37,030 nucleotides of DNA from a virus (lineage: Duplodnaviria; Heunggongvirae; Uroviricota; Caudoviricetes). The notes beneath the pieces are model-generated. The model did no database searches, was not told where the DNA came from, and saw only the letters and a program-made list of their open reading frames with translations. Below, in pieces: positions 288 through 35,898 of this stretch. Positions within the stretch are counted from its first letter, which is position 1; each line of letters opens with the position of its first letter. The translations under genes and the position numbers were made by a program. The stretch spans positions 1 through 37,030 of IMG/VR virus record IMGVR_UViG_2861069343_000007. One strand, written 5' to 3'.

Positions 288-665
288 TTACTGATTTTTT
301 CTGTGCTGTGGTTTAAACAAACTACTGATAAATAAGAAACACAGTGCCCCCAGCGCACACCAGAACACCGCGCTTAGTAACCATGCCAGCTCTTGCCAGA
401 ATGAGCGCGTCGGTGAAAAAAACAGCCGCATAATGAGCATCGAACAGGGTGCCGCCAGCATTGCGCCAAACAGAGGTTTCAGGACTTCTCTACGCTGTGA
501 AAAGAAGCTGGCGACTGCTCCAGGAAGAATGAAAAATAGCAAGCCGATTTCAGGATGCCCGGCAGCCCGAAAAGCGCCTTTCATGTGCGTCGCCAGAAAA
601 AGGCACACCACAATGAAGAGGACAAAACAGCAGATTGCCCCCGCCCAACGTTGTTTATGTTTCAC
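288..665 (-). CDS. ybjM: Inner membrane protein YbjM
   Basis: 125 aa, strongly hydrophobic with several predicted TM segments; position between grxA and ybjL matches the E. coli K-12 gene order. Confidence 0.8.
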   Translation of the reverse strand: MKHKQRWAGAICCFVLFIVVCLFLATHMKGAFRAAGHPEIGLLFFILPGAVASFFSQRREVLKPLFGAMLAAPCSMLIMRLFFSPTRSFWQELAWLLSAVFWCALGALCFLFISSLFKPQHRKNQ

Positions 666-934: not shown

Positions 935-2620
935 GTGAATATAAACGTCGCCGAATTGTTAAATGGGAATTACATTCTGTTATTATTTGTGGTCCTCGCG
1001 CTTGGGCTATGTCTCGGAAAGTTACGACTTGGTTCGATCCAACTGGGTAATTCCATTGGCGTTTTAGTCGTATCGCTGTTATTAGGCCAACAACATTTCA
1101 GCATTAACACCGATGCGCTTAATCTTGGCTTTATGCTGTTTATTTTCTGCGTCGGGGTCGAAGCCGGACCGAACTTTTTTTCCATTTTTTTTCGCGATGG
1201 GAAAAATTACCTAATGTTAGCACTGGTGATGGTTGGCAGTGCGCTGGTGATCGCCTTAGGGTTAGGTAAGCTGTTTGGCTGGGATATTGGCCTGACGGCC
1301 GGTATGTTAGCAGGCTCTATGACGTCGACACCGGTTCTGGTCGGTGCTGGCGATACACTGCGTCATTCCGGCATGGAAAGCAGGCAGCTCTCACTGGCAC
1401 TGGATAATCTGAGCCTCGGGTATGCCTTAACCTATTTAATCGGTCTGGTGAGTTTGATTGTTGGTGCGCGTTACTTGCCGAAATTGCAGCATCAGGACTT
1501 ACAGACCAGCGCCCAGCAAATCGCCCGCGAACGTGGCCTGGACACTGATGCCAACCGTAAGGTTTATTTACCGGTGATCCGCGCCTATCGCGTCGGCCCG
1601 GAACTGGTGGCCTGGACCGACGGCAAAAATCTGCGTGAACTGGGTATTTATCGACAAACCGGCTGCTACATTGAACGTATTCGACGTAACGGGATTCTGG
1701 CAAATCCAGACGGTGATGCCGTGCTACAAATGGGCGATGAAATAGCGTTGGTAGGCTATCCCGACGCCCATGCCCGACTCGATCCCAGCTTCCGTAACGG
1801 TAAAGAAGTTTTCGATCGTGACCTTCTCGACATGCGTATCGTCACTGAAGAAGTGGTCGTTAAAAACCATAACGCTGTAGGTAAACGTCTCGCACAACTG
1901 AAGTTGACCGATCACGGTTGCTTCCTTAACCGCGTCATTCGTAGCCAGATTGAGATGCCGATAGATGACAACGTCGTGCTTAACAAAGGTGACGTTTTAC
2001 AAGTCAGCGGCGATGCCCGCCGCGTAAAAACCATCGCCGATCGCATCGGCTTTATCTCGATTCACAGCCAGGTCACTGACCTGCTGGCATTCTGCGCCTT
2101 CTTTGTTATTGGGCTGATGATCGGGATGATCACCTTCCAGTTCAGCACATTCAGTTTCGGCATGGGGAACGCTGCCGGGTTGTTATTCGCCGGAATTATG
2201 CTGGGCTTTATGCGTGCTAACCACCCGACCTTCGGTTACATTCCGCAAGGTGCATTAAGCATGGTGAAAGAGTTCGGCTTGATGGTGTTTATGGCAGGCG
2301 TTGGTCTGAGCGCCGGTAGCGGTATTAATAACGGCCTGGGCGCGATTGGCGGTCAGATGTTGATTGCCGGATTAATTGTCAGTCTTGTGCCCGTGGTTAT
2401 CTGTTTCTTGTTCGGTGCTTATGTATTGCGAATGAACCGCGCACTGTTGTTCGGCGCAATGATGGGCGCACGCACCTGCGCGCCGGCAATGGAGATCATC
2501 AGTGATACAGCTCGCAGTAACATCCCTGCGCTGGGCTATGCGGGCACCTACGCAATCGCCAACGTCCTGCTGACGCTGGCAGGGACAATCATCGTCATGG
2601 TATGGCCAGGATTAGGATAA
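935..2620 (+). CDS. ybjL: Putative transporter YbjL (AAE family, duplicated membrane domains with central TrkA-C-like region)
   Basis: 561 aa; hydrophobic N- and C-terminal halves around a soluble middle; recognised as E. coli YbjL. Confidence 0.9.
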
Positions 2621-17811: not shown

Positions 17812-18015
17812 TCAGTCCCATAGCTGGACGGTCTGCACGGTGGTGGTGGTCGGAATGTCCGGCAACTCCACCTGCAGCCCGTGAGGTAAAAAGGGGCCGT
17901 ATTCGGCAAGCCCCGGATTTGCCTTCAGTACCTGCTCCGTGACACCCTGCGTGCGCCCGTAATGACGCCAGCAAAGCGCGTCCACCGTGTCATACTGATG
18001 CGCACGCACTTTCAT
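17812..18015 (-). CDS. X: Tail protein gpX
   Basis: 67 aa; P2 X-like (…YGRTQGVTEQVLKANPGLAE…). Confidence 0.85.
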   Translation of the reverse strand: MKVRAHQYDTVDALCWRHYGRTQGVTEQVLKANPGLAEYGPFLPHGLQVELPDIPTTTTVQTVQLWD

Positions 18016-18362
18016 CAGATAAGCTCCACTGTGCAGTGCGGCGCATCCTGCACCCGGCTGATGGCCCAGCGGGCGTCACGCCACAAATCACCGCTTGCTT
18101 CCGCCAGTTCCTCGCCCCGCTTCACACCGGACGCCGTGGCGTCATAGTCCTGGTAACGTTCGTTGAGCATGGCGCGTGCCCAGCAGTAAACCGCGTTGAA
18201 ATAGTGCTGAATGCGCTCACTTTTGCCGTCCAGCTGTTCCGCCGGAACCTCTGCCAGCGACGCATACCCCAGCATCTGCTGGCGTCTGCGAAACTCATAC
18301 AGCTCTGCGTTGACCTCCGAAATTGCCGACAGCGCAACCTGCTTTAAACGCGGCTGCGTCAC
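18015..18362 (-). pseudogene. L: Head completion protein gpL, N-terminally truncated (C-terminal ~2/3 only)
   Basis: 115 aa aligning with the C-terminal part of P2 gpL (…NAELYEF…DLWRDARWAISRVQ…); GTG start abuts the stop of the N fragment. Confidence 0.65.
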
Positions 18363-18715
18363 AGGTCCAGCTTCGCGTAGGTCAGCACCGTGTCAAAGTT
18401 GGTCTGCTCGCATTTATATTCCACATCGACCATCAGCGTCGGATCGACAGGTTCACGCTCTTTCGCGGTGGTGTCAGTGGTTCCGGCAATGGTGCTGCCA
18501 ACTCCCAGCCCCAGCAGCTGACCGGACTGCTCAGTCACTGGCGTGACGTTAATCAGCGTCAGGAAAGCGGCGGACTGCTGGATCTGGTCTTCCAGCGTCT
18601 GCTGCACAGACGGCTCCACGGTGAACTTGCTGGACAGTTCTTCAACTGCCACACCGTTCAGACGCGCCAGCTGCTGCAGGTAAGCGTTAAAAGCAAAGCG
18701 GGTATTCTTCTTCAT
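18359..18715 (-). pseudogene. N: Major capsid protein gpN, N-terminal fragment (118 aa of an expected ~350 aa)
   Basis: MKKNTRFAFNAYLQQLARLNG…FTVEPSV… matches the P2 gpN N-terminus; stop at the position where gpN normally continues. Confidence 0.65.
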
Positions 18716-19707: not shown

Positions 19708-21474
19708 ATGAACACCACACTGACACCCGCAGATCTCGATCCCCGTCGGCAGGCCATGCTGCTGTACTTTCAGGGATACCGCGTAGCCCGCATTGCTGAA
19801 ATGCTGGGCGAGAAAGTTGCAACCGTTCACAGCTGGAAAAAACGCGACAAGTGGGGTGACTATGGGCCGCTGGATCAGATGCAGCTCACCACCGCCGCCC
19901 GCTACTGCCAGCTCATTATGAAGGAGCACAAAGAAGGGAAAGATTTCAAAGAAATTGACCTGCTGGCGCGCCAGTCGGAGCGCCACGCGCGGATCGGCAA
20001 GTTTAACAATGGCGGCAACGAAGCCGACTTAAACCCTAACGTCGCCAACCGCAACAAAGGGCCGCGCCGTCAGCCGGAAAAGAATGTTTTCACCGATGAA
20101 CAGATTGAGAAGCTGGAAGAAATCTTCCATTCCTCCATGTTCAACTACCAGCGCCACTGGTGGGAAGCAGGAAAAACCAACCGCATCCGTAATCTGCTGA
20201 AGTCACGCCAGATCGGCGCGACCTTTTACTTTGCCCGTGAAGCCCTGATTGACGCCCTGCTTACCGGACGTAACCAGATTTTCCTTTCTGCCAGTAAGGC
20301 ACAGGCTCACGTCTTTAAGCAGTACATCATCGACTTCGCCAAAGAAGTCGAGGTGGAGCTGAAAGGCGATCCGATGGTGCTTCCTAACGGGGCCACACTT
20401 TACTTCCTCGGCACCAATGCCCGCACGGCTCAGAGTTACCACGGCAACCTGTATCTGGATGAATATTTCTGGATACCGAAATTCCAGGAGCTGCGCAAAG
20501 TGGCTTCCGGTATGGCTATTCACAAAAAATGGCGACAAACCTATTTTTCTACGCCATCCAGCCTGACACACAGTGCTTATCCGTTCTGGTCCGGTGCGCT
20601 GTTCAACCGTGGGCGCAACAAAGCCGACAAGGTGGACATCGACCTGTCCCACAGCAATCTGGCCCCCGGCCTGCTGTGCGCAGACGGGCAATACCGCCAG
20701 ATAGTCACCGTGGAAGATGCAGTGCGCGGCGGCTGTAACCTGTTCGACCTTGACCAGTTGCGCATGGAGTACAGCCCGGACGAATACCAGAACCTGCTGA
20801 TGTGCGAGTTTGTGGACGATCTCGCGTCCGTGTTCCCGCTCAGCGAGCTGCAGGCGTGCATGGTGGACAGCTGGGAAGTCTGGACCGACTTTCATGCACT
20901 GGCGCTGCGCCCATTTGGCTGGCGCGAAGTGTGGATCGGTTATGACCCGGCAAAAGGTACGCAGAACGGCGACAGTGCCGGATGCGTGGTGCTGGCACCG
21001 CCAGCCGTGCCGGGCGGTAAGTTTCGCATTCTTGAGCGTCACCAGTGGCGCGGGATGGACTTTCGCGCCCAGGCTGACGCCATCAAAAAACTGACCGAAC
21101 AGTACAACGTGACCTATATCGGCATCGACTCAACCGGCGTTGGTCACGGGGTTTACGAGAACGTGAAAGCGTTTTTTCCTGCCGTCCGGGAGTTTGTCTA
21201 CAACCCCAACGTTAAAAACGCCCTGGTACTCAAGGCTTACGACATTATCAGCCACCGCCGTCTTGAGTTTGACGCCGGACACACCGACATTGCGCAGTCA
21301 TTTATGGCAATCCGTCGCGCCACCACCGCCAGCGGCAACCGCCCGACCTATGAAGCCAGCCGCAGCGAAGAAGCCAGCCACGCCGATCTGGCGTGGGCAA
21401 CCATGCACGCACTGTTTAACGAACCGCTGCAGGGCGAGTCCGCCAATACCAGCAATATTGTGGAGATTTTTTGA
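19708..21474 (+). CDS. P: Terminase large (ATPase) subunit gpP
   Basis: 588 aa; P2 gpP-like; divergent from O. Confidence 0.9.
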   Translation: MNTTLTPADLDPRRQAMLLYFQGYRVARIAEMLGEKVATVHSWKKRDKWGDYGPLDQMQLTTAARYCQLIMKEHKEGKDFKEIDLLARQSERHARIGKFNNGGNEADLNPNVANRNKGPRRQPEKNVFTDEQIEKLEEIFHSSMFNYQRHWWEAGKTNRIRNLLKSRQIGATFYFAREALIDALLTGRNQIFLSASKAQAHVFKQYIIDFAKEVEVELKGDPMVLPNGATLYFLGTNARTAQSYHGNLYLDEYFWIPKFQELRKVASGMAIHKKWRQTYFSTPSSLTHSAYPFWSGALFNRGRNKADKVDIDLSHSNLAPGLLCADGQYRQIVTVEDAVRGGCNLFDLDQLRMEYSPDEYQNLLMCEFVDDLASVFPLSELQACMVDSWEVWTDFHALALRPFGWREVWIGYDPAKGTQNGDSAGCVVLAPPAVPGGKFRILERHQWRGMDFRAQADAIKKLTEQYNVTYIGIDSTGVGHGVYENVKAFFPAVREFVYNPNVKNALVLKAYDIISHRRLEFDAGHTDIAQSFMAIRRATTASGNRPTYEASRSEEASHADLAWATMHALFNEPLQGESANTSNIVEIF

Positions 21475-22499
21475 TGGGAAAGAGTAAGAAAAACCGCGCT
21501 GCGGCGACGAATCAGATCCAGCATAAAAACCAAACTTCAGTCGAAGCATTCAGCTTCGGTGATCCCGTTCCTGTTCTGGACCGCCGCGAACTGCTGGACT
21601 ATGTGGAATGCGTACAGACAGATCGTTGGTATGAGCCGCCAGTGAGTTTCGACGGGCTGGCGCGCACCTTTCGCGCCGCCGTGCATCACAGCTCACCGAT
21701 TGCAGTAAAGTGCAACATTCTGACCAGCACCTACATCCCTCACCCGCTGCTCAGCCAGCAGGCTTTTTCACGTTTTGTGCAGGACTATCTGGTATTTGGT
21801 AACGCCTACCTGGAGAAACGCACGAACCGCTTCGGTGAAGTTATCGCCCTTGAGCCTGCTCTGGCAAAATACACCCGACGCGGGTTAGACCTGGATACCT
21901 ACTGGTTTGTGCAATACGGTATGACAACCCAGCCGTATCAGTTCACGAAAGGCAGCATTTTTCACCTGATGGAACCGGATATCAACCAGGAGATCTACGG
22001 CCTGCCCGGTTATCTTTCTGCCATTCCGTCAGCCCTGCTCAACGAGTCCGCCACGCTGTTCCGCCGCAAGTATTACATTAACGGCAGTCATGCAGGCTTC
22101 ATCATGTACATGACCGATGCCGCGCAAAACCAGGAGGATGTGAACAACCTCCGCAACGCAATGAAAAGCGCCAAAGGACCGGGTAACTTCCGCAACCTGT
22201 TTATGTACTCGCCTAACGGCAAAAAGGATGGGCTTCAGATCATTCCTCTGTCAGAAGTCGCGGCGAAGGATGAGTTTCTGAATATCAAGAACGTGAGCCG
22301 GGACGACATGATGGCGGCGCACCGCGTACCGCCGCAAATGATGGGGATTATGCCTAGCAATGTCGGGGGGTTTGGGGATGTGGAGAAGGCTAGTAAGGTA
22401 TTCGTAAGAAACGAATTGATGCCCCTGCAGAAACGATTGCAGGAACTAAATAACTGGTTGGACGAAGAAGTGCTCAATTTTTCAACCTATGAGCTTTAG
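21471..22499 (+). CDS. Q: Portal protein gpQ
   Basis: 342 aa; P2 gpQ-like; start overlaps P stop. Confidence 0.9.
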   Translation: MMGKSKKNRAAATNQIQHKNQTSVEAFSFGDPVPVLDRRELLDYVECVQTDRWYEPPVSFDGLARTFRAAVHHSSPIAVKCNILTSTYIPHPLLSQQAFSRFVQDYLVFGNAYLEKRTNRFGEVIALEPALAKYTRRGLDLDTYWFVQYGMTTQPYQFTKGSIFHLMEPDINQEIYGLPGYLSAIPSALLNESATLFRRKYYINGSHAGFIMYMTDAAQNQEDVNNLRNAMKSAKGPGNFRNLFMYSPNGKKDGLQIIPLSEVAAKDEFLNIKNVSRDDMMAAHRVPPQMMGIMPSNVGGFGDVEKASKVFVRNELMPLQKRLQELNNWLDEEVLNFSTYEL

Positions 22500-22535
22500 T
22501 TTTAAAACGAAGACCATTAGGTCTTCGCTTTATTT
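22500..22535. terminator. Bidirectional terminator between convergent Q and retron RT
   Basis: 8-bp stem cgaagacc / ggtcttcg (loop atta), flanked by ttttaaaa upstream and ctttattt downstream; RT stop codon lies in the loop. Confidence 0.55.
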
Positions 22536-23479
22536 AAAGGGTTCTTTCCATATTTTTTTTCTAATTTGCTAATATAAGCTATTAATCTTCTATGGCTTTT
22601 TGAATCCACACTTAAAATAAATGACAACCATCCCCTAACGTGTTCTATCTCAGAAGATTTACCGCAAAATATATGATGTATCTTTGCTCTAATTTCTTTA
22701 TATTTTTCTCTACCTATCCCAACTTTCTCTTGTGAAATAACTAAACCTGTAACTTTCCTCTGACTACGAGGCCCACTAATACAAGTTTTTTTTGAGTTAA
22801 TAACCAATCCTTCACTTGGGATTATAGAAAATAAAAAATCACGTGCTTTAACAACCTTTTTCATAGACTGTGCAGATAAGGTGAGATCATCGGCATATCT
22901 CGTATATATCAAGCCCCGACTACCTGCATAGCCCTGAATACGATAATCAAGTTTTGAACATATTAGATTAGCTAATTTAGGTGATGATGGAGCACCTTGT
23001 GGTAGCAGATTTTTATAACAACATATTTTTGTCAAAACTGAAGATATTAGTCGATTATAACCAAGAGAATGGAACACTCCAAAAACTTTGTTAGCAGTTA
23101 AACTTGGGAAAAAATCCTCCAAATCAATATTCAGTATAAAGTTTGCCCCAATATGCGGGGTAGCATTATTCAAAATAGATTGGTGCTTTTCAAATCCAAT
23201 AGAAAAAGGAGATGACGACAGTTTATCTAAAATGTTACGTAGAACCCATCCTTGTAAGGCTTTAAGTTCTCGAGAAGGTTGGTAAATGGTTCTCATTCTC
23301 TTCTCTGGGCCTTTCTTTTCTACAGTGTAGATCCTATAGCGAAAATCAGCTGTATAGATTAACAACCGAAGTGTTTCAACAGATATGCGAGTCGCCTTAG
23401 ACATGTCATGCAAATTGTTCATGACAGGTAGGCCGAGATTTCTCAATCTAAAAGTGTTCAAATATTCAGCGGATTTCAT
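22517..23479 (-). CDS. ret: Retron reverse transcriptase (Retron-Eco1 / Ec86 RT)
   Basis: 320 aa; RT motifs including YADD (YTRYADDLTL); start codon 7 nt downstream of the a2 repeat of msr-msd. Confidence 0.93.
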   Translation of the reverse strand: MKSAEYLNTFRLRNLGLPVMNNLHDMSKATRISVETLRLLIYTADFRYRIYTVEKKGPEKRMRTIYQPSRELKALQGWVLRNILDKLSSSPFSIGFEKHQSILNNATPHIGANFILNIDLEDFFPSLTANKVFGVFHSLGYNRLISSVLTKICCYKNLLPQGAPSSPKLANLICSKLDYRIQGYAGSRGLIYTRYADDLTLSAQSMKKVVKARDFLFSIIPSEGLVINSKKTCISGPRSQRKVTGLVISQEKVGIGREKYKEIRAKIHHIFCGKSSEIEHVRGWLSFILSVDSKSHRRLIAYISKLEKKYGKNPLNKAKT

Positions 23480-23485
23480 GAAAGT

Positions 23486-23654
23486 TGCGCACCCTTACGT
23501 CAGAAAAAACGGGTTTCCTGGTTGGCTCGGAGAGCATCAGGCGATGCTCTCCGTTCCAACAAGGAAAACAGACAGTAACTCAGATTCAATGCAGGATGCC
23601 GAAACAACATCCAGAGGTTGACCTTAATGATAAACCTCTCGCTAAGGGTGCGCA
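23486..23654 (-). ncRNA. msr-msd: Retron msr-msd non-coding RNA (Ec86 msDNA template)
   Basis: Plus strand 23499..23585 reads gtcagaaaaaacgggtttcctggttggctcggagagcatcaggcgatgctctccgttccaacaaggaaaacagacagtaactcaga, recognised as Ec86 msd; flanking inverted repeats a1/a2 TGCGCACCCTTA at 23643..23654 and 23486..23497. Confidence 0.9.
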
Positions 23655-24565
23655 TACGGAATCTTATCATAGTTAAATGTTGATTTTCTACGGTTTTCAA
23701 AATTCATAATCTCAAGCCGCAATCGGTCAAGTGTCTTTCTATCAAAGACGCTCCTAACATAGCTAGCCCCCAAAGCAGTGACCTGATAACCATCAGTCAT
23801 TTGAAGTATTTTTCGTTCATTTATTAGACGAGAAACAACGGATCTAACAATAATTTTAGATAAAACATCATCTTGCTTTATCGCTTTAAAAGCTAGTTCA
23901 CACAGTGTGCGGTAGTTGACACTATCCAGTAAATAGATACAAGGCAATAGAAACCGCTCTGCGTATAATATATTTCCAATATCTTTTGATACTTTATTTT
24001 CTTTCCTAACCTGCTTAATAGATGCCATTAATTTTTTATATAATCGTAATTTTCTGGCAACATCAATAGATGAATCACACATTTCTTTTAGTTCATTTGA
24101 ACTACAACGCAAAACAGATTTTGAATTAAACTTACGCAACAGGCGAACAGGACCATAGTTAATAAAGCTACGTTTTGATTTAAATTTTGCATCTTGAATG
24201 CAAATCAACTTTCTCCTTAAGTTTTCATTATTAGAGAACGCACCAAGCTCTGTGAAAGACCCCGGACTTTCAGGAAATAAAATTATTACATCGACAGCTT
24301 CAGCCAGAATATTTTCTAAACTTAAAAGGCTATGCTGCCCTTGACCAGCCAAAAGATCATCAAATAGATCTTCTGGATAAAATATATCAACATCACTGAA
24401 CTTTGCTAAAAATTGTGATAATTGATGACGCCAAGATTGATGATTAGCAACGTCACCACCACATAGAAAAATGGTTATTTTAATATTAGCTCCTCGATAG
24501 AAGCCTTTCTTTGTGAGATGTCCTATAAGCTGTTGTTGCTGCTCATCGGTAAATTTTTTATTCAT
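23642..24565 (-). CDS. Retron-Eco1 accessory effector (nucleoside deoxyribosyltransferase-like domain protein)
   Basis: Immediately upstream of msr; start assigned to MNKKFTDEQ (ATG 24565..24563, GGAG 4 nt upstream) though in-frame ATGs exist upstream (24595, 24754); stop overlaps a1. Confidence 0.75.
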   Translation of the reverse strand: MNKKFTDEQQQQLIGHLTKKGFYRGANIKITIFLCGGDVANHQSWRHQLSQFLAKFSDVDIFYPEDLFDDLLAGQGQHSLLSLENILAEAVDVIILFPESPGSFTELGAFSNNENLRRKLICIQDAKFKSKRSFINYGPVRLLRKFNSKSVLRCSSNELKEMCDSSIDVARKLRLYKKLMASIKQVRKENKVSKDIGNILYAERFLLPCIYLLDSVNYRTLCELAFKAIKQDDVLSKIIVRSVVSRLINERKILQMTDGYQVTALGASYVRSVFDRKTLDRLRLEIMNFENRRKSTFNYDKIPYAHP

Positions 24566-24637
24566 AATCTCCCCGCTTTTTTCTACTTTATACATCAAGT
24601 TATGAATAGATCCAATCTCCATACCCCATGGCGCGCG

Positions 24638-24656
24638 CTCGTATCCCCGCCACGCC
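24638..24656. other. Candidate cos site (cohesive end)
   Basis: Minus strand reads GGCGTGGCGGGGATACGAG, resembling the P2 cohesive end GGCGAGGCGGGGAAAGCAC as recalled; inside a short GC-rich patch between two AT-rich islands. Confidence 0.4.
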
Positions 24657-24697
24657 TGCCCGCTTTGTGTAGTGGTTTTCATGCACCTGCATGACAT

Positions 24698-24722
24698 AAG
24701 TAAAAGCCCGCCAGAACTGGCG
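24698..24722 (-). terminator. Hairpin with U-tract on the minus strand in the cos-proximal region
   Basis: cccgccag..ctggcggg stem (24706..24722) followed on the minus strand by a T-run. Confidence 0.35.
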
Positions 24723-24874
24723 GGACTGAGCAAAAACGATCCTTTTGCGATCATTCATTTTCATGCGCTATAGTCATGCAACAAACGCATACGAACCATA
24801 TGGTTAGATTACTCATCAAGTCAGATGGATTTTCAGGCAGATTGCCACAGCAATTGTAAAGGAGCGAGATTGAA

Positions 24875-25876
24875 ATGGGTGGAGAGACTTCGGCTATACA
24901 ACGAGTCGCGGGTAAGATTTCTGATGATATTTTCTCAGTGTTCAAATGGGATCGTGCCGCTAGAGCGGACATGAATTGGGATTGTTGCCAAGAGGCTCAT
25001 TCCAAGAAAACACATCCAAGCGATGTTGTATTTTTCTACATAGATCCATATGAGGAGGAAATGGTCTATCTCAACACAGACCTCAAAAGCTATGCAGAAG
25101 GTACTATTGGGAAAAAAATAGTCGAGGGAGCTTTAACATCGCTTGCTTTAGCTACCGAATGTGCAAATGTCAGTGAAGAATGGCGATTGAAATATGTTCA
25201 TGATGATTCTTTAGGTTATAACGTAAGAGGGTTATTATTCTTATATAACCATGATAATTTATATGATAAAGACTTCTATGAGAATATTACAAAAAAATTA
25301 GATCACTCATCTATAAATTGCCCTCCAAACATCAAACTACATTTGCTTGACCCTTATAAAATATCAGATTTGATAAACATATCTTCTGACATAACTAAGT
25401 TAATTGGTTCAGGCAAACTTCCTCAACCTGATAAGTTCACATATTATTATCCAGATCTTTCCCTAACAAGAATAAAGCACCCTATTAATCAGACAACACC
25501 TGCAACAATTGAATTATTAACATCACCATACATTATAATAAAGCATGAGGCTTTCAGTTGGCTCAGGGATAAAAACCCTGAGGGATATGTTGTTTATTAC
25601 AATCAACCGGGGGATTCAGTAGACGAATTCGTTTACTTCTTTGATATGTTATCAACTTATCAGATATTAACCGAAGGTAAACCAATCGTATTACGCCATT
25701 GTCACATTCACCCAAATGAAAATGCCATTCATCATTTTGAAAGAGCGAAAAAGAAATACAGCACAGACTGGCTCTTAGGCGAGGATGAAAGACTTTTTCT
25801 TAAAATTGACTTCGACAAGACAGACAAAATTGTTGTTGAATATAATCTTGAACAAATCGGCATGGAGCAACGATAA
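24875..25876 (+). CDS. Hypothetical protein, first gene of three-gene cargo operon
   Basis: 333 aa; AGGAG upstream; AT-rich codon usage unlike the phage backbone; no family recognised by eye; possible PD-(D/E)xK-like pattern VVFFYID…NTDLK (speculative). Confidence 0.7.
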   Translation: MGGETSAIQRVAGKISDDIFSVFKWDRAARADMNWDCCQEAHSKKTHPSDVVFFYIDPYEEEMVYLNTDLKSYAEGTIGKKIVEGALTSLALATECANVSEEWRLKYVHDDSLGYNVRGLLFLYNHDNLYDKDFYENITKKLDHSSINCPPNIKLHLLDPYKISDLINISSDITKLIGSGKLPQPDKFTYYYPDLSLTRIKHPINQTTPATIELLTSPYIIIKHEAFSWLRDKNPEGYVVYYNQPGDSVDEFVYFFDMLSTYQILTEGKPIVLRHCHIHPNENAIHHFERAKKKYSTDWLLGEDERLFLKIDFDKTDKIVVEYNLEQIGMEQR

Positions 25877-26955
25877 TGGCTAAAAAACTATATTTCGCAA
25901 CTGATAAAAATATTTATGATGCATTACATCATAAAAGGATAACCGCTGCAAAGTTGCATGAATTATTGTTGAATCGAGGTGTGTTTTTATCACCAGAACT
26001 CGACAAGGAAATACTAATCGAGGAAATATCCAAACTTCCTCACGGATTTAATGAATTAGAACACATAAAAAAACTGGTCAAAACATATGACCCAAGGGAA
26101 AGCACTACTAGTGTGAGCTTCCAAACCTCAACAAATCAGGCCGAATTAAAAAGTGCTGCTGAAGCACTAAAAAAAACATGCTCCCCTAGTAAAGGTCAAA
26201 GCCTGAATATTGTAGCTAAAAAAGATGGCTCGCTTACAGTAGAATACAAATATGAAGAAATAGACCTGTCTAAAACTGCATTACGTCAGATCGACAAGCG
26301 GAATGTTATAATAGAACTTCGCCCTGGAGCTGACAAAGTTGAAGTACGTATGCCTCAAAACCCCGAGGCAAAAAAAGTTATTGAGAGCTTGCAAAACGAG
26401 CTATCTAAAATCAAGTCCGAACCTATCGAGCGCTTCGAAATATCATTACTAGCAATAACTGATCCTACATTGCGAAGTCAGTTTTTTCAGGAATTAATGA
26501 ATGGTCTACGCGGTTATGAGACTGATGACGTAACAAAAGTCGAATTAAATCGCAGTACTGATGCTAGTGAGGATGAAGACAAGGAAGAAACTATTGATAC
26601 CGGATTTGTTAAGAAAGCTGTCCTTAATGGTGAAGGGGTAAATAGTTCAGCTATATTTTCTCAACTACATGAGAAAGGTTATTATATCGGGCGTATTGCA
26701 TGGTCTTCAAAGCCGACAAGTGGAATTGGAGACAGAATCAACGTCGAAGCATTTTTCAAAGACTCAGAAAAATGCTGTGACTTTGCCTATCAAATTAAAG
26801 GTATAAACAATCAAAAAGAAGACGGTTTCAATGTAACCATTCGCGCGGCAACAGCACAAGAGAAAAAACATATTAGTGAATTAATTGAGTCCGCCGCTGA
26901 AAATGCCTATAATATAATAATAGGATCAGAGGTGAACGAAGATGAAAAAGGTTAA
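25876..26955 (+). CDS. Hypothetical protein, second gene of three-gene cargo operon
   Basis: 359 aa; start overlaps upstream stop (TAATG); charged and Lys/Glu-rich; no recognisable motif. Confidence 0.7.
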   Translation: MAKKLYFATDKNIYDALHHKRITAAKLHELLLNRGVFLSPELDKEILIEEISKLPHGFNELEHIKKLVKTYDPRESTTSVSFQTSTNQAELKSAAEALKKTCSPSKGQSLNIVAKKDGSLTVEYKYEEIDLSKTALRQIDKRNVIIELRPGADKVEVRMPQNPEAKKVIESLQNELSKIKSEPIERFEISLLAITDPTLRSQFFQELMNGLRGYETDDVTKVELNRSTDASEDEDKEETIDTGFVKKAVLNGEGVNSSAIFSQLHEKGYYIGRIAWSSKPTSGIGDRINVEAFFKDSEKCCDFAYQIKGINNQKEDGFNVTIRAATAQEKKHISELIESAAENAYNIIIGSEVNEDEKG

Positions 26956-27625
26956 ATGGCTTAAGTTAAACATACGGCTTGAGTTTGAAACAGCCGTTAG
27001 ACGTCTTTCTCTTGATTCTTTTACAGAGGATAAAGGGAAAGGGTTCATTTTTGATAAAATACGCCATGATTTTGCAAATGGTCGCTTTGTCGAGCGTATT
27101 GTTTATCATGATAAAATATTAAGCTTTGACGGAAGCGAAACTACCGTTGAAAGAATCGAATATCGCACCACAAATTTTAGCGTGGCTTTAGACTCTCTTC
27201 CTGTAATGCAGATTACTAACCCACCCAGAACTTTAAAGCCTTTTTCGCAGGCTTTGGTAAAAAATCTTGGCTTAGGTGTTAGTTTGGAAGAAATTGACAT
27301 AAACCCTATAGACTGGCTTAATGAAATATCTTCAAGTGTAAATATCAATTTAACACAACTTGATATTTCAAGGGTTAGAGTTTCTGATTACGCCACAGCT
27401 AAAATGCAAATAATTGGCAGCAATGATCTTAGGAAGTATTATAAAGAAGAATTAGAGGGTAAAAAAATAAGAATTGACAGGCTTGTTTGCTCTGTTAATT
27501 CATTAGAATATTCCGGTAAGCTCAAGATCACCAATAGCGGCCTTGCTTATATTGATGTTAGAAATGAGAATGAGTTTACGAAAATCGTTTTTGATACGTT
27601 AAAAAAAGTCACCCTTCAATCATAG
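26942..27625 (+). CDS. Hypothetical protein, third gene of three-gene cargo operon
   Basis: 227 aa; 14-nt overlap with upstream gene; no recognisable motif. Confidence 0.7.
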   Translation: MKKVKWLKLNIRLEFETAVRRLSLDSFTEDKGKGFIFDKIRHDFANGRFVERIVYHDKILSFDGSETTVERIEYRTTNFSVALDSLPVMQITNPPRTLKPFSQALVKNLGLGVSLEEIDINPIDWLNEISSSVNINLTQLDISRVRVSDYATAKMQIIGSNDLRKYYKEELEGKKIRIDRLVCSVNSLEYSGKLKITNSGLAYIDVRNENEFTKIVFDTLKKVTLQS

Positions 27626-27681
27626 ATGGCTTATAAGGAGTTACTTCACCTAACGCCTCGCCTTACTCGTTGTTCAACCTC

Positions 27682-27712
27682 GTAGGCGTCAGAATCAAGT
27701 TCTGACGCCTAC
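27682..27712 (+). terminator. Strong stem-loop between convergent cargo operon and dinI-like gene
   Basis: Perfect 13-bp stem gtaggcgtcagaa / ttctgacgcctac with 5-nt loop. Confidence 0.5.
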
Positions 27713-28306: not shown

Positions 28307-30721
28307 TTAATACAGATCCCGCCACTTATCATCTTCCTGCAAACGCTGGTTCCGATAGAAGATACGCAGGCCTGCTCCTGACGGAATACTGCCGCCGCGA
28401 AGGAGTAAATCGACCTCTTTCTCGCTGCCATCAAATCCTCTGGACTTCAGTTCATAGACGAGCTGCTGTCGTTGATGGTCTGTAATTCGCTGTTTGTAGT
28501 CTCTACGCCGTTTCGGTTTCACCAGGCGTAACCTTGCAGCCAGTTCCCGGCGTTCTTTTTTGTTCATACTGTGCAGGTAATCGTGCAACTCCTTGTCATC
28601 CATACGGGTGATATCCGTTCTGGTATCCCCATCAGCTGATTTGTCTTTCCCTTGTTGGTACAAATTTTCAGCAAGGGGACAGTTATTGCCACGAGTCCAA
28701 GGGGCGCAAGCGCCCTGGTCGGCTACCGCCTCCTGAACGTCAACGGCCTTACGAACCATTTTCCACTTCACTGCATGAGTGCAGATCTTGCCCTCTGAAA
28801 TGGGTGACCAGATGCCATAAATACGAATACCGTGATCGCCATAGGCGGTCGGCTCTTCGTTAATTTCATAAGCGGTTCTGATAAGGTGATATTTGCGGGG
28901 AACCAGTACGCCGCCCTGCTTCATGATGTAGGTGGCAAAACAACCAGCATCAGCAGCAGCCAGGATGGCATCAAGACGCGGGTCATCCAGTACCGGCGCA
29001 CCTGCTTTTTTGTCACCCGGTTGCCTTGCCGCCTGACCAGCCAGCAAGCGAAGTTCACGGTAAGCCTGACGCCCCGGAATGCCAAAGAAGCGGAATTGCT
29101 GAACACGATGCAGAGACGCCCAGGCATTAACGTATTCAGCGTTATCACGCAGGGATTTACCCGTTTCCTTGCTGATCTCGCCAGCCAGACCACGCCCGTC
29201 AATGTTCTTACTGATGTATTTCGCGATGTAGCTTGTTGGCGTACCTTTGCGCGGGTTTATCAGCTCAGACTTAAAGCGTGGTCCCGTGTTATTACCCAGC
29301 TCCTCGCGGTCTTCACGAATGGCAAACTTACGCAACAAAGCAGTAATGGTGCGGCGATCTTTTTTGCGCATAAAACACAACAGGTGCCAGTGAACTGTAC
29401 CGTCATGATGCGGCTCAGCCACCCGCACGCCATACCAGCGCAATCCGGCTTTGTGCATCGCCTTACGAAATGCAGCAAACATGCCGACCAGATAATCACT
29501 GCTTTGTCTTACCGTCGTATTTGTCCAGGTCGGGTTGGGCCTGCCGTTATTTAGCGTGGAATGGAAACGTGACGGACAGGTGATGGTGTAGAAAACGGCG
29601 CAGTCACCGCGCATTTCCGCGATAAGCTCCAGACCTTTAACACAGGCCATCATCTCATTGCGGCGATGCGCAGGGTTGCTGCTGCTGGCGTTTACCACAT
29701 CCTCCATGTCCAGCGTGTCGCCGTCTTCGTTCACCAGTTCATGAGAACGGAAAAACTCCAGCGACTTACGGCGCTGCTCACGTTTATGCATCACGGCTTC
29801 ATAGCTGACATAGGGAGATGCTTTTTTGCTGACCAGGCAAACAGCACGCAACTGCTCTTCCCGCCATTCGCAACGCATCTTCCATAATTTCCGGTACCAC
29901 CAGTCGGCGCACAACATACGCGCCAGCGAACCCGGAATGAGTTCATAGGGCACGGGTTTACGGCGGTTTCTTTTCCGGCGGAGTTGCTCAAACGCAGGCG
30001 GTATGACATCCAGTCGCAGGGTTTCCGCAGCCACCTTTTCCCATGTCTTGCGGATTTCTTCTGGCTTAACATCATCGGTGGCGTACAAATCACCACAAGC
30101 GGCATCAAGACACATGCTCATATGCGCAGCGACAAGAGTAGACAGGCGTTTCACCTGATCCTGACTCATTTCAGGCAAGTTCAGCAGGCCGTCCAGCCCT
30201 TCATGGCTTGCCATAAAGCGAAAAGAAGTGGATAGCTGACTCTCGCGTACATGCTCCAGTCGTTCCAGACATGGCTTAATCGTCTCACGCAAATAGCGGG
30301 AATAAGCCTTTGGCCTGCCCAGGCTGCTGAAGTATTCAATACGTTGCATCAGCGGCTTGCTGATATGGGAAGGCTGGGCGTTAACGTCCGCCAGTATGAC
30401 CATGTCCGGATTAAAACGCTGCTGCTCATGCGCCAGCTTTGCCCGGCTAATGAGCTTATCCTGCTCCATTTCGCGTTGGACAGGATCACGGGATTCATTA
30501 AAGAAATAACGCTCCCAGACCTGATCACTCAGTACCTCGAGGCGCAGTTGTTCCTGCTCGTTATCGGCAGCGTACAGAGTGATCAGGTTTGAAAGCGCAG
30601 AAACCGGCGCAACTTCCGCCGGGTCCAGATAAGGGTTAATAGCCTTTTTCGGGCTGTTCCATGAGAATGCTGCGGCGGCCTCGTTAAAGCCGCTGCAGTT
30701 GTTCATATCAGCATGGCTCAT
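28307..30721 (-). CDS. A: Replication initiation protein gpA (rolling-circle nickase)
   Basis: 804 aa; P2/186 A-like. Confidence 0.9.
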
Positions 30722-31575
30722 GCACGCACTCCGTACACGGCAGAACTATCCACGCCACGCGAAGGATCAAATCCCACCCAGCAGCGCACCCCAGAAACAG
30801 CGATGATTTCTGCTGCAAATTTACTCTCACCAGCTGCTACGCCGATGCTGCGTTTTGCCTTGATGTAGTGGTGAGTAAAATTGCGATACAGCGAACGGAT
30901 CAGGGATGTGTCACTGTTAGAAACAATGACCGGATGTCCTTCTGATGACCGATGTTCAAGAACGGATGCCAGGTGATACTGGTCATCTTCAGTGAAGCCG
31001 TCAGTGTGATAACCGGAAAACGTGCCGTCATACGGCGGATCGCAATACACCACATCCCCCGCCTTCAACATCGCCAGCGTTTCATCAAAGCTGGCGCAGA
31101 TAAACGTTGCCCGCTGAGCTTTTTCTGCAAATGCGCGAATTTCTTTTTCAGGGAAATACGGATTTTTATAATTACCGTAGGGAATGTTGAAATGCCCGCT
31201 CTTGTTATAGCGACATAAACCACGGTAACCGTGACGATTGAGATACAGGAAATATACCGCTTTCATGAAATCAGTAATTTCAGTGGAGTAATTAAACTCC
31301 TGCCTTATGTTGTAATAAGCCACCTCCCTGTTTGCTTCCTCAAACAAAATTCTGGCGCTAGATATAAACGCCTCACAATCAGCAGCAACCTTTTTATAGA
31401 GGTTGATTAAATCAGGATTAATATCCGCAACCAGATAGCTGGGATAATCCGTCTCCATCATCACTGCACAGGAACCCGCGAAAGGTTCAACCAGTCGCGG
31501 GCCAGCAGGAAGATGTTTTTTCAGTTCGGACATAATGGCGGTTTTATTTCCCGCCCATTTCAGGATGGTGCTCAT
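30718..31575 (-). CDS. dam: DNA adenine methyltransferase (orphan Dam-like MTase)
   Basis: 285 aa; DPPY catalytic motif ([12 protein letters not shown]) and N-terminal SAM-binding region; overlaps A start. Confidence 0.85.
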
Positions 31576-33640: not shown

Positions 33641-33785
33641 AAGGCAACATTCCTTCTAGATATGGCTTGTGGCGAGCCGTTGTTTGTCGTGATTAGTAGT
33701 GAAGACTCCAAAAGAAGACTTCTGGTTCAACTTTAAGATCGCTTTTGGAATCTGTCAACGAATTTTGGATTTCTTTGGAGGATTT
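33641..33785. promoter_or_regulatory. Genetic switch region with expected face-to-face pR/pL promoters
   Basis: Intergenic region between divergently placed apl and cI; arrangement inferred from phage 186, elements not mapped. Confidence 0.4.
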
Positions 33786-34355
33786 GTGGATTTCAATAGC
33801 GGCGGTAAGAAAACCATAGAACGTTTGGTTGAAGCATACGGGTTCGGTACCCGTCAGGCTCTCTGTGATCATTTAGGTGTTTCTAAGAGCACCATGGCAA
33901 CGCGTTATATGCGTGATATTTTTCCGGCAGATTGGGTAATCCAGTGCGCCCTTGAAACGGGTACCTCGCTTAATTGGCTAACAACAGGGCATGGTTCAAA
34001 GCAAGCATCAGCAAATACAAATACTATAGAAGTAGTAAAATATTTATTGTCTGATGGAGCATTGCAGGAAGACGGTTTTTATATTTTTGATAAGGGATTT
34101 CTACCCTCTACGTTTAAAAAACCTTTTGTCATCACAGATAACAATTCTGAATTTATTTGTGATAAAGAATTTGATGATATACGTGATGGTAAATGGGTAA
34201 TAAGTATTGATGGCGAAATAACAATCCGCGACATCACTCGTTTACCCGGTGGAAGAATTTTCGTTGAAGGTGGAAACAGAGCCTTCGAGTGCAAGATAGA
34301 AGATGTTGAAATAATTGGAAAAATTATAAGCTTAACAGTTAAGTATGTTAGATAA
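33786..34355 (+). CDS. cI: CI immunity repressor (186 type)
   Basis: Resembles 186 CI (…EAYGF…CALETG…NWLTTGHG…); start placed at GTG 33786 with GGAGG 6 nt upstream (ORF-track ATG 33699 would add 29 aa). Confidence 0.8.
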   Translation: MDFNSGGKKTIERLVEAYGFGTRQALCDHLGVSKSTMATRYMRDIFPADWVIQCALETGTSLNWLTTGHGSKQASANTNTIEVVKYLLSDGALQEDGFYIFDKGFLPSTFKKPFVITDNNSEFICDKEFDDIRDGKWVISIDGEITIRDITRLPGGRIFVEGGNRAFECKIEDVEIIGKIISLTVKYVR

Positions 34356-34566: not shown

Positions 34567-35898
34567 ATGAGCACAGATATAACTTTCGATATACGTGATG
34601 AATATAAAAGAAAAGCCATTGCAGAAAAAATAATAAGTTTGCTAGAGTCTAATATTCCTGTTTCACCTATGGTCATAGATGGGGACTGGGGGACTGGAAA
34701 AACAGAGTTTTCAAAAAAGTTAGCATCCTTAATTGAAATAAACTCGACCAATCATAAAGTAATTTATATAGATGCTTTTACTGAAGATCACAACGATGCT
34801 CCCATACTTACAATAATGGCCGCAATTGCAGCTCTATATAATAGCGATGAAAAAAAGGAATTAATATCTAAGGCATTGCCAGCCCTCAGATTCGGACTTA
34901 AGACTGTACTCAAAGCTGGTGCTGGTTGGGTATTAAAACAAAATGCGGATGAAATTAATAAGGAATTTGAAGAGGTTATCAAAGACGCTGCAAATTCAGC
35001 TATCGATGGAACCATCGAGGCTCTGTTAGAAGATCATATCGAGGCACAAAAGAACGTTCTTGCTCTAAAAGAAGTACTAACCAAATTAGCTGGAGAAAGT
35101 AAACTAACAATAATTATAGATGAGTTAGACAGATGTAAGCCTAGTTTTGCCATTTCTATTATTGAAAATATAAAACATGTTTTTGATATAAAAAACATTA
35201 ACTTTTTATTAATTGCAAACACAACTCAACTAAAAGCATCCATAAATCATATCTATGGCTCTTCTGTAGACTCCAACCGTTATCTTGACAAATTTATAAA
35301 ATTTACATACAGCCTTCCTGTTACCTTTAAGGAAGATAATTATAATGATACTTTAACTTCCAAAAATCATTGGATGATGCTATGTGAGCAATCTGAAAGG
35401 CTGACCGCTGCAGTAGAAGCCAGCGAAGATATTTTCTTACAGTTCATTGAAAGTAGAAAATTATCATTACGTGAGGTTGAAACACTTGCTAGATATGTTG
35501 AAATATACCAACTACTATCAGGCGACAAAATTAGCAACAAATATATTTATGGATATTGTTATTACAGGACTCTAGCGATAATAATCTACACTTTTAACCG
35601 AGAGTTAGCTCTCAACTTTCTTGAAGATAAAGTTGATGCTCAATCAATCATGAAATTGTTTGGTTTATCTAAATTTTCATATCAAACAAGTGAATATAAT
35701 GTAGATAATTATGAATATGCTATATTTGGAATAGTTTACAAATACTTATCTGAAAACTCATCTCTTTTACCTGCTGAGGAAAATATAAAAAGACAATGGG
35801 CAGAAATGAGTGAATACCATTTTTTAAAAGGTGGTGGCGGTATTGGTGAACCAACAAATATTGTGAAAGATGCTTTAAAAGTTTTTTTACTTCAGTGA
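34567..35898 (+). CDS. KAP-family P-loop NTPase
   Basis: 443 aa; Walker A GDWGTGKTEF and Walker B IIIDELDRCKP in KAP NTPase arrangement; AT-rich; between cI and int. Confidence 0.8.
   Translation: MSTDITFDIRDEYKRKAIAEKIISLLESNIPVSPMVIDGDWGTGKTEFSKKLASLIEINSTNHKVIYIDAFTEDHNDAPILTIMAAIAALYNSDEKKELISKALPALRFGLKTVLKAGAGWVLKQNADEINKEFEEVIKDAANSAIDGTIEALLEDHIEAQKNVLALKEVLTKLAGESKLTIIIDELDRCKPSFAISIIENIKHVFDIKNINFLLIANTTQLKASINHIYGSSVDSNRYLDKFIKFTYSLPVTFKEDNYNDTLTSKNHWMMLCEQSERLTAAVEASEDIFLQFIESRKLSLREVETLARYVEIYQLLSGDKISNKYIYGYCYYRTLAIIIYTFNRELALNFLEDKVDAQSIMKLFGLSKFSYQTSEYNVDNYEYAIFGIVYKYLSENSSLLPAEENIKRQWAEMSEYHFLKGGGGIGEPTNIVKDALKVFLLQ

Follow-up and report, generated by a model that had tools for sequence, protein, structure and literature searches.

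The stretch of DNA analysed here (37,030 nucleotides, IMG/VR virus record IMGVR_UViG_2861069343_000007; hereafter the window) starts with ybjM/ybjL-like host genes and continues with ogr, tail, lysis and head genes, P, Q, cos, A, cI and an integrase gene that is cut by the window end. The host genes at the ogr end are a ybjM-like gene at 288-665 (minus strand) and a ybjL-like gene for an Asp-Al_Ex/TrkA_C permease at 935-2620 (plus strand). The terminase large subunit gpP is encoded at 19708-21474 (plus strand; Pfam Terminase_5/6N/6C) and the portal protein gpQ at 21471-22499 (plus strand; Pfam Phage_portal). A Dam-type (D12 class) orphan adenine methyltransferase gene is located in the early operon beside A (30718-31575, minus strand). 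Past the end of Q, a short GC-rich patch separates two AT-rich islands, as the initial annotation had pointed out: the GC content is 60 % over 24631-24730 and 77 % over 24631-24665, against about 36 % on either side (35.6 % for the Q-side cargo at 22517-24630, 36.4 % for the cargo at 24781-27625) and 55 % for the phage backbone. A retron cassette had been named as the neighbour on the Q side and a three-gene plus-strand operon as the neighbour on the other, and both were recovered by PADLOC at these coordinates.

Cargo genes beside the GC-rich patch

The Q-side island is a type II-A retron on the minus strand. Its reverse transcriptase is encoded at 22517-23479 (PADLOC RT_II-A, 8.4e-128; Pfam RVT_1) and its NDT-like effector at 23642-24568 (PADLOC NDT_II-A, 3e-94), with the start codon at 24568, 70 nt from the 19-nt sequence that we assign below to the cohesive end (the 19-mer). 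An open reading frame of 370 amino acids at 23642-24754 spans cos; it was rejected as a gene, being an upstream in-frame extension of the effector, and its recognition as an artefact is a gain for annotation. The msr-msd non-coding region of Ec86 (Eco1) was placed at 23490-23660 (minus strand, bounds approximate) by exact matches to Ec86 segments, for the msd at 23524-23553 and for the msr at 23611-23648. That these exact matches fall inside a locus (22400-24780) with 98.8 % DNA identity to E. coli B strains (the BL21 locus) supports the query strings as Ec86. PGAP names the reverse transcriptase and effector of the E. coli B locus "retron St85 family". An Rfam scan of 22300-25000 at E <= 1 returned a chance miRNA match only, with no retron or cos-related family, and a search for records of exactly the same protein as the retron effector had no result. 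The Ec86 msr-msd, the reverse transcriptase and the upstream open reading frame together take the place of the DNA that separates cos from the end of the portal/W gene. Dodd & Egan (1996, Virology 219:115), as cited in PMC6868368, reported that Ec86 and Ec67 replace some 180 bp between cos and the packaging-gene terminator, and excerpts of PMC5694545 describe the cos-to-Q slot. Loci that differ in Q-side cargo also differ in the final codons of Q and in the terminator that follows (22508-22527; region 22470-22530). The segment that can be replaced therefore begins at cos+7 and reaches into the 3' end of Q, each cassette bringing its own Q tail and terminator.

In the place of P2 old/tin, the other island holds the three-gene defence operon Hp1-Hp2-Hp3 ("3HP"; 24875-27625, plus strand), which starts at 24875, 219 nt from the 19-mer. 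All three genes gave full-length PADLOC matches (Hp1 1e-239, Hp2 3e-248, Hp3 2e-157), and an identical Hp1 is found at the same position in many E. coli P2-like prophages. According to excerpts of Rousset 2022 (PMC9122126), a three-gene system from the P2 hotspot protects against P1. Precomputed Pfam labels for 24875-26955 are PDDEXK_GAPS4 for Hp1 and, weakly, GAPS4b_N for Hp2; in the Pfam scan of this analysis Hp1 had no match. The 3HP system appears to overlap the family named GAPS4. A third AT-rich cargo, a KAP-family P-loop NTPase gene at 34567-35898 (plus strand), sits between cI (33699-34355) and int (35900 to window end) and matches the PADLOC candidate defence family PDC-S20 (6.9e-171).

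Identification of the cos site

On the minus strand of the GC-rich patch the 19-mer GGCGTGGCGGGGATACGAG occupies positions 24638-24656, its sole match in the 37-kb window even when up to three mismatches are allowed. A longer core pattern of 36 positions, AAAACC-N8-AAGNGGGCNGGCGNGGCGGGGA, had one match in the window, with 0 mismatches and an expectation of 0 from shuffled sequences, and the pattern search revealed no second cos-like sequence elsewhere in the window. For comparison with mapped phages, the right and left ends of their records were joined and aligned to the window's minus strand. In GenBank, the records of 186, PSP3, P2 and P4 begin at the cohesive end, which is GGCGTGGCGGGGAAAGCAT in 186 and PSP3 and GGCGAGGCGGGGAAAGCAC in P2 and P4; for 186 and PSP3 the annotation of this end reads "top strand cut at 5' end and bottom strand cut at 3' end". 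Of its 19 positions, the 19-mer shares 15 with the 186 cos, among them all of the first 13 nt, and 14 with the P2 cos; it has the form GGCG(A/T)GGCGGGGA... of P2-family cohesive ends. The resemblance to the P2 cohesive end proposed in the initial annotation holds as homology, although the P2 sequence given there was inexact. An alignment to the P2 and 186 cos regions had been set beforehand as the test of that proposal. In an eight-way alignment of the window with P2, P4, 186, PSP3, SEN8, Fels-2 and BL21, homology extended across a whole core of about 63 bp.

The closest counterparts of the 19-mer define its subtype. The nearest phages, SEN8 and Fels-2, are Salmonella phages (Felsduovirus). 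Positions 1-19 of SEN8, annotated "putative cos site", are identical to it (19/19), and the SEN8 record ends exactly at the base homologous to 24657. Fels-2, the cryptic prophage of E. coli B/BL21 and Escherichia phage vB_EcoM-813R9 are also identical at 19 of 19 positions, so that the sequence at 24638-24656 (minus strand) is the Fels-2/SEN8 variant of the P2-family cohesive end. A full-text literature search for the 19-mer retrieved the SEN8 genome announcement only, in which ggcgtggcggggatacgag is given as cos, found during annotation (PMC5427200). A literature search that included the Fels-2 cos found no experimental end-mapping of this ATACGAG variant.

The position of the patch conforms to that of a cos site. 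It lies between Q, which is transcribed toward it, and the right-end early/accessory region, and the gene order P and Q (plus strand), cos, then DinI/tum and A (minus strand) matches 186, P2 and PSP3. The same element encodes an intact gpP and lacks gpM, the second terminase subunit; this bears on whether the window's copy of cos works and not on its identity by descent. Judged from its sequence, the GC-rich patch is very probably (about 0.9) the cos of a P2-family (Peduoviridae) prophage of the Fels-2/SEN8 subtype, located next to ybjL/ybjM-like host genes. Staggered cuts would leave 19-nt 5' overhangs at the positions indicated by the alignment to 186 and P2. The overhang differs from the mapped 186/P2 ends at four of the last six positions, so that the exact position of the 3' nick rests on the alignment. 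Knowing where cos lies makes it possible to predict where the virion genome ends, and it delimits the slots of retron Ec86 and 3HP.

Conserved core and its boundaries

The conserved core, ATGCAGGTGCATGAAAACC..AAAGCGGGCA followed by the 19-mer and CGCGCGC, covers 24631-24693 on the minus strand (about -37 to +26), as defined by the eight-way alignment and a conservation profile of IMG/VR loci. It is common to the window, P2, P4, 186 and PSP3 and aligns as ATGCA..TGCAT(T/G)AAAACC-N8-AAG(C/T)GGGC(A/G), the 19-mer and (C/T)GCGCGC, without gaps against P2, P4, 186 and PSP3 from TGCAT..AAAACC through GCGCGC; beyond it the sequences diverge. It corresponds to the core of about 55 bp that P2 shares with its satellite P4, described by Ziermann & Calendar (1990) as cited in PMC5694545. 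The IMG/VR sample was retrieved with a degenerate core pattern and comprised 120 loci, 114 of them full-length, from which 113 unique cos regions were profiled. Between -37 and +26 the window differs from the consensus of its 19-mer class at one position, which varies within the class.

Four lines of evidence (the starts of BLAST matches, divergence between loci, the conservation profile and the comparison of P4 with P2) place the junction between the conserved core and the variable Q-side cargo at 24630/24631, 7 bp past the 19-mer. Among the 113 unique cos regions the information content falls from maximal to near zero at +26. Eight loci agree with the window at 196-200 of 200 A-side bases and yet carry five unrelated Q-side sequences, splitting after GCGCG(C/G). 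P4 and P2 have only cos in common, and the divergence between them begins at the base where Q-side conservation stops. In a BLAST search of the patch against 50,697 phage records, 82-91 P2-like records matched at 84-95 % identity. They belong to phages of Klebsiella, Yersinia, Salmonella and Escherichia, Fels-2 and SopEPhi among them, and in each case the conserved block started at 24631-24632 and reached about 24780. The homology to Fels-2-type phages spans about 150 bp (E = 1e-37 to 1e-69). A weak run of G on the Q side at about +30 to +36, which recurs in several loci, was treated as noise, with family-wide conservation near zero. The precise 7-bp boundary is a modest addition to known cos biology and illustrates how little sequence stays fixed on the Q side of a P2-family cos.

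Conservation around the 19-mer is lopsided: on the Q side it covers about 7 bp, on the A side 37 to about 125 bp. Within the 19-mer class, A-side conservation runs to at least -120, and a conserved right-end flank with TGCAT repeats was delimited by BLAST and the class profile at 24657-24800 (minus strand). Repeats of the TGCAT type occur at 24774-24780 and 24758-24768, together with a degenerate third. Counted from the cut, such repeats are found at about -124, -110, -99 (the degenerate copy), -36 and -29 (24745-24785 and 24674-24692, minus strand); they are kept across the P2, P4, 186 and Fels-2 types at a roughly helical spacing and may be binding sites of the small terminase subunit. A promoter scan detected, overlapping with these repeats, a promoter-like element that points toward the 3HP operon, TTGCGA-18-TATAGT at 24745-24774 (plus strand). 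The mapped starts of the P2 old transcript are at the equivalent place, and we regard the element as the putative 3HP promoter. A small plus-strand hairpin at 24660-24675 lies inside the core; it was set aside, as its structure is poorly conserved across P2, 186 and the 19-mer class.

A larger hairpin, CCCGCCAG-aa-CTGGCGGG at 24707-24724, is followed on the minus strand by CUUUUACUUA and extends with its CUUUUA tail over 24698-24724. The hairpin with a minus-strand U-tract beside cos, noticed in the initial annotation, is thus present, and a consensus scan lists the site as terminator-like. Its folding energy is -15.1 kcal/mol with a modest z of -2.25. Hairpins occur at an equal offset in the cos regions of 186, PSP3, P4 and Fels-2-type phages; the T-tract is present in the Fels-2 class and absent in 186. 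GCCAG..CTGGC is widespread, and in some lineages another stem is found in combination with a T-tract. The hairpin is probably an intrinsic terminator for minus-strand transcription heading into cos, an assignment held with moderate confidence since the U-tract is short, the z value modest and the 186 hairpin free of a T-tract. A protein-binding palindrome was considered as well, and a minor uncertainty remains on this point.

A terminator-like hairpin and promoter-like hexamers are also what a regulatory intergenic spacer, with a terminator and divergent promoters between two cassettes, would display, in which case the resemblance to cos would be incidental; in favour of this, the first 13 nt of the 19-mer are of low complexity and GC-rich. 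This explanation is hardly credible in view of the 36-position core pattern, present with 0 mismatches where none is expected, the homology over about 63 bp to mapped cos sites and over about 150 bp to Fels-2-type phages, and the canonical position from P/Q to A. We retain the assignment as cos. In an intact relative, the gpM/gpP terminase would recognise the core mainly on the A-gene side (TGCAT...AAAACC...AAGCGGGCA) and nick both strands in a staggered manner, the products being 19-nt 5' overhangs of GGCGTGGCGGGGATACGAG; the binding and nicking steps follow the established biology of P2 and 186. The left virion end would then consist of GGCGTGGCGGGGATACGAG-CGCGCGC and continue into the retron, with the cassette beginning 7 bp off and the ATG of the effector gene 70 nt away. 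The right virion end would lie about 220 bp after the 3HP operon start and carry the hairpin, the putative 3HP promoter and the operon reading inward. Some 50 nt from the cut, the hairpin would stop minus-strand transcription from the early region (tum/A side) before it reaches cos.

Distribution of the cos subtype

The 19-mer of the window is the second commonest variant among the full-length IMG/VR loci (32 of 114), and all classifiable loci with this variant are P2-like. The sample holds at least 11 variants of the 19-nt cohesive end. The P4-like satellites in it have AAAGCAC, AGAGCAT or ATAGCAT ends and none has ATACGAG. An insert of more than 500 nt between cos and Q was present in 19 of 23 loci of the window's 19-mer class and in 4 of 30 loci with the P2-type 19-mer; the 2139 nt of the window are typical for this class. 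Within the sample, loci of the ATACGAG and ATAGCAT classes often carry Q-side cargo, whereas those with the P2-type end rarely do. The frequency of large inserts indicates that this lineage normally carries cargo on either side of cos, and the proposal that both termini of the packaged genome would carry accessory genes follows from the anatomy of the locus.

The subtype of cos is paralleled by the terminase. The gpP of the window shares 99.8 % identity with its vB_EcoM-813R9 counterpart and about 63 % with P2 gpP; 42 phage records encode a gpP with at least 99 % identity, and those that were checked share the cos type of the window. Since the gpP type matches phages with the same 19-mer, cos subtype and terminase type go together.

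Two cargo slots around the cos core

Excerpts of Rousset 2022 (PMC9122126) place the gpA-gpQ defence hotspot directly adjoining cos and count retrons among its contents, a description repeated in excerpts of a 2026 NAR survey (PMC13586616). With the type II-A retron and 3HP, the window has variable defence genes flanking cos on either side within the gpA-gpQ interval, and its relatives carry different cargo at the same junctions. Genomes of the retron type match 22400-24780 and those of the 3HP type match 24631-27700; the overlap is the cos block 24631-24780. Among ten places with an identical Hp1, the Q-side cargo is of at least five kinds. A search of 5,426 complete E. coli genomes found no place that covers 80 % or more of 22400-27700, the stretch in which Ec86 is paired with 3HP; each half is common separately. 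By these sequence comparisons the Q-side and A-side modules assort independently around the cos core, and the Ec86/3HP pairing looks like an ordinary recombinant. As only about 7 bp past the 19-mer would be needed on the Q side, the stretch up to the 3' end of Q would be freely replaceable and form a slot apart from the old/tin-type slot.

The sharp and recurrent Q-side junction, 5-7 bp from the 19-mer and shared by many unrelated cargo types, and the independent assortment of the two sides could also be the signature of a block that serves chiefly in the capture or recombination of cassettes, with a dedicated site-specific mechanism recognising GCGCGC by cos and packaging not as the main role. 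Rousset et al. speculate, in excerpts of PMC9122126, that cohesive ends promote recombination. Yet the cassettes come with no associated recombinase, their Q-distal boundary falls within the conserved Q coding sequence, with cassette-specific Q 3' ends, and selection for a minimal functional cos alone would yield a sharp boundary. A boundary inside Q is better explained by homologous exchange between the cos core and Q than by site-specific insertion, and we consider a dedicated capture site very improbable. The packaging site remains the preferred reading of the block, and the view of the gpA-gpQ hotspot as two slots is a modest refinement and not a new kind of element. A further-reaching scenario, which we think unlikely, would make the cos core of about 63 bp a fixed crossover point splitting the hotspot into two slots, the window a fresh recombinant, and the element, with cos, gpP and gpQ intact and gpM and gpN lost, a helper-dependent, satellite-like element of 34 kb whose three defence cassettes could be mobilised by a co-infecting Fels-2-type phage.

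Defective state of the prophage

Partial PHROGs matches and tblastn with PSP3 N, M and L revealed a deletion scar at 18015-18715 (minus strand), in which residues 1-118 of N are fused to residues 54-165 of L at 18362/18363. Lost in the deletion are two thirds of the capsid gene N, the whole of M and the first part of L, and neither tblastn nor PHROGs gave a match to gpM, the small terminase subunit, anywhere in the window. In about 1000 E. coli genomes the two halves match at separate places, which is what an intact N-M-L order would produce; in intact relatives about 1.9 kb lies between the N and L halves. As a single contiguous match, the N'-'L junction was found in none of the 5,426 complete E. 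coli genomes, the match in NCTC9038 being joined from two pieces spanning 1.8 kb.

The presence of the cos core, of gpP, gpQ and gpO and of the tail, lysis, replication and immunity genes would suit an intact and inducible prophage that uses cos in cis for its own packaging. The tblastn and PHROGs results, with N 1-118 and L 54-165 only and no gpM, the 1.9 kb retained by intact relatives at this place, and the rank of gpL, gpM and gpN as hallmark genes of the family (PMC13100340) effectively refute this, unless the deletion is an assembly error, and we regard self-packaging as extremely unlikely. With gpM lost and gpN truncated, the element cannot package itself, and its cos could be cleaved only in trans by a helper phage. 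The cos of the window is intact in sequence but orphaned, and its function in cis is impossible; cutting and packaging of this copy would require a helper with a matching cos type, either resident in the same cell or arriving by infection. The prophage thus cannot be induced to yield virions, and an experimental follow-up needs a helper phage.

Comparison with known systems

The cos regions of SEN8, Fels-2, vB_EcoM-813R9 and BL21 are the nearest equivalents. The 19-mer and CGCGCGC are identical to those of the window, and the A flank is nearly so, including the CCCGCCAG/CTGGCGGG hairpin and GTGCATGAAAACCACTAC. The Q-side cargo is an HNH endonuclease and a hypothetical gene in SEN8, a hypothetical gene for 565 amino acids in Fels-2, Hypoth_Ymh in 813R9 and retron Ec86 in both BL21 and the window. 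The A-side cargo differs between the window and these four, and the window's copy stands in an element without gpM or an intact gpN. The internal deletions of the two Ec86 prophages are different, N'-'L in the window and O-'K in BL21. The retron prophage of BL21 is located at about 0.85 Mb, presumably the same chromosomal region as that of the window's prophage.

With 186/PSP3 and P2/P4 the window shares the 19-nt end GGCG(A/T)GGCGGGGA..., the upstream TGCAT-AAAACC-N8-AAG(C/T)GGGC, the downstream (C/T)GCGCGC and the adjacent portal gene. It departs from 186 and P2 at overhang positions 14, 16, 17 and 19 (ATACGAG against AAAGCA(T/C)), so that imperfect annealing is expected between its ends and those of 186 or P2, and gpP is only about 56-64 % identical. 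Between cos and the Q/W terminator, the 2.1-kb retron of the window stands in the place of the roughly 160-180 bp of non-coding DNA found in 186 and P2. The Ec86/Ec67 case of Dodd & Egan (1996), a 186-related prophage, presents the same retron, the same place beside cos and a ybjL/ybjM-like neighbourhood; the window in addition pairs the retron with 3HP across cos. As in the hotspot of Rousset 2022 and the NAR survey, defence systems are found between gpA and gpQ beside cos, and 3HP was validated in that work. The feature itself, its subtype, the position of the retron and the surrounding defence hotspot are all already described, and the additions made here are modest: the 7-bp boundary, a packaging-defective copy and the two-slot view. 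In their excerpted text both surveys treat gpA-gpQ as one hotspot, whereas the sequence of the window presents two slots, split by the core of about 63 bp.
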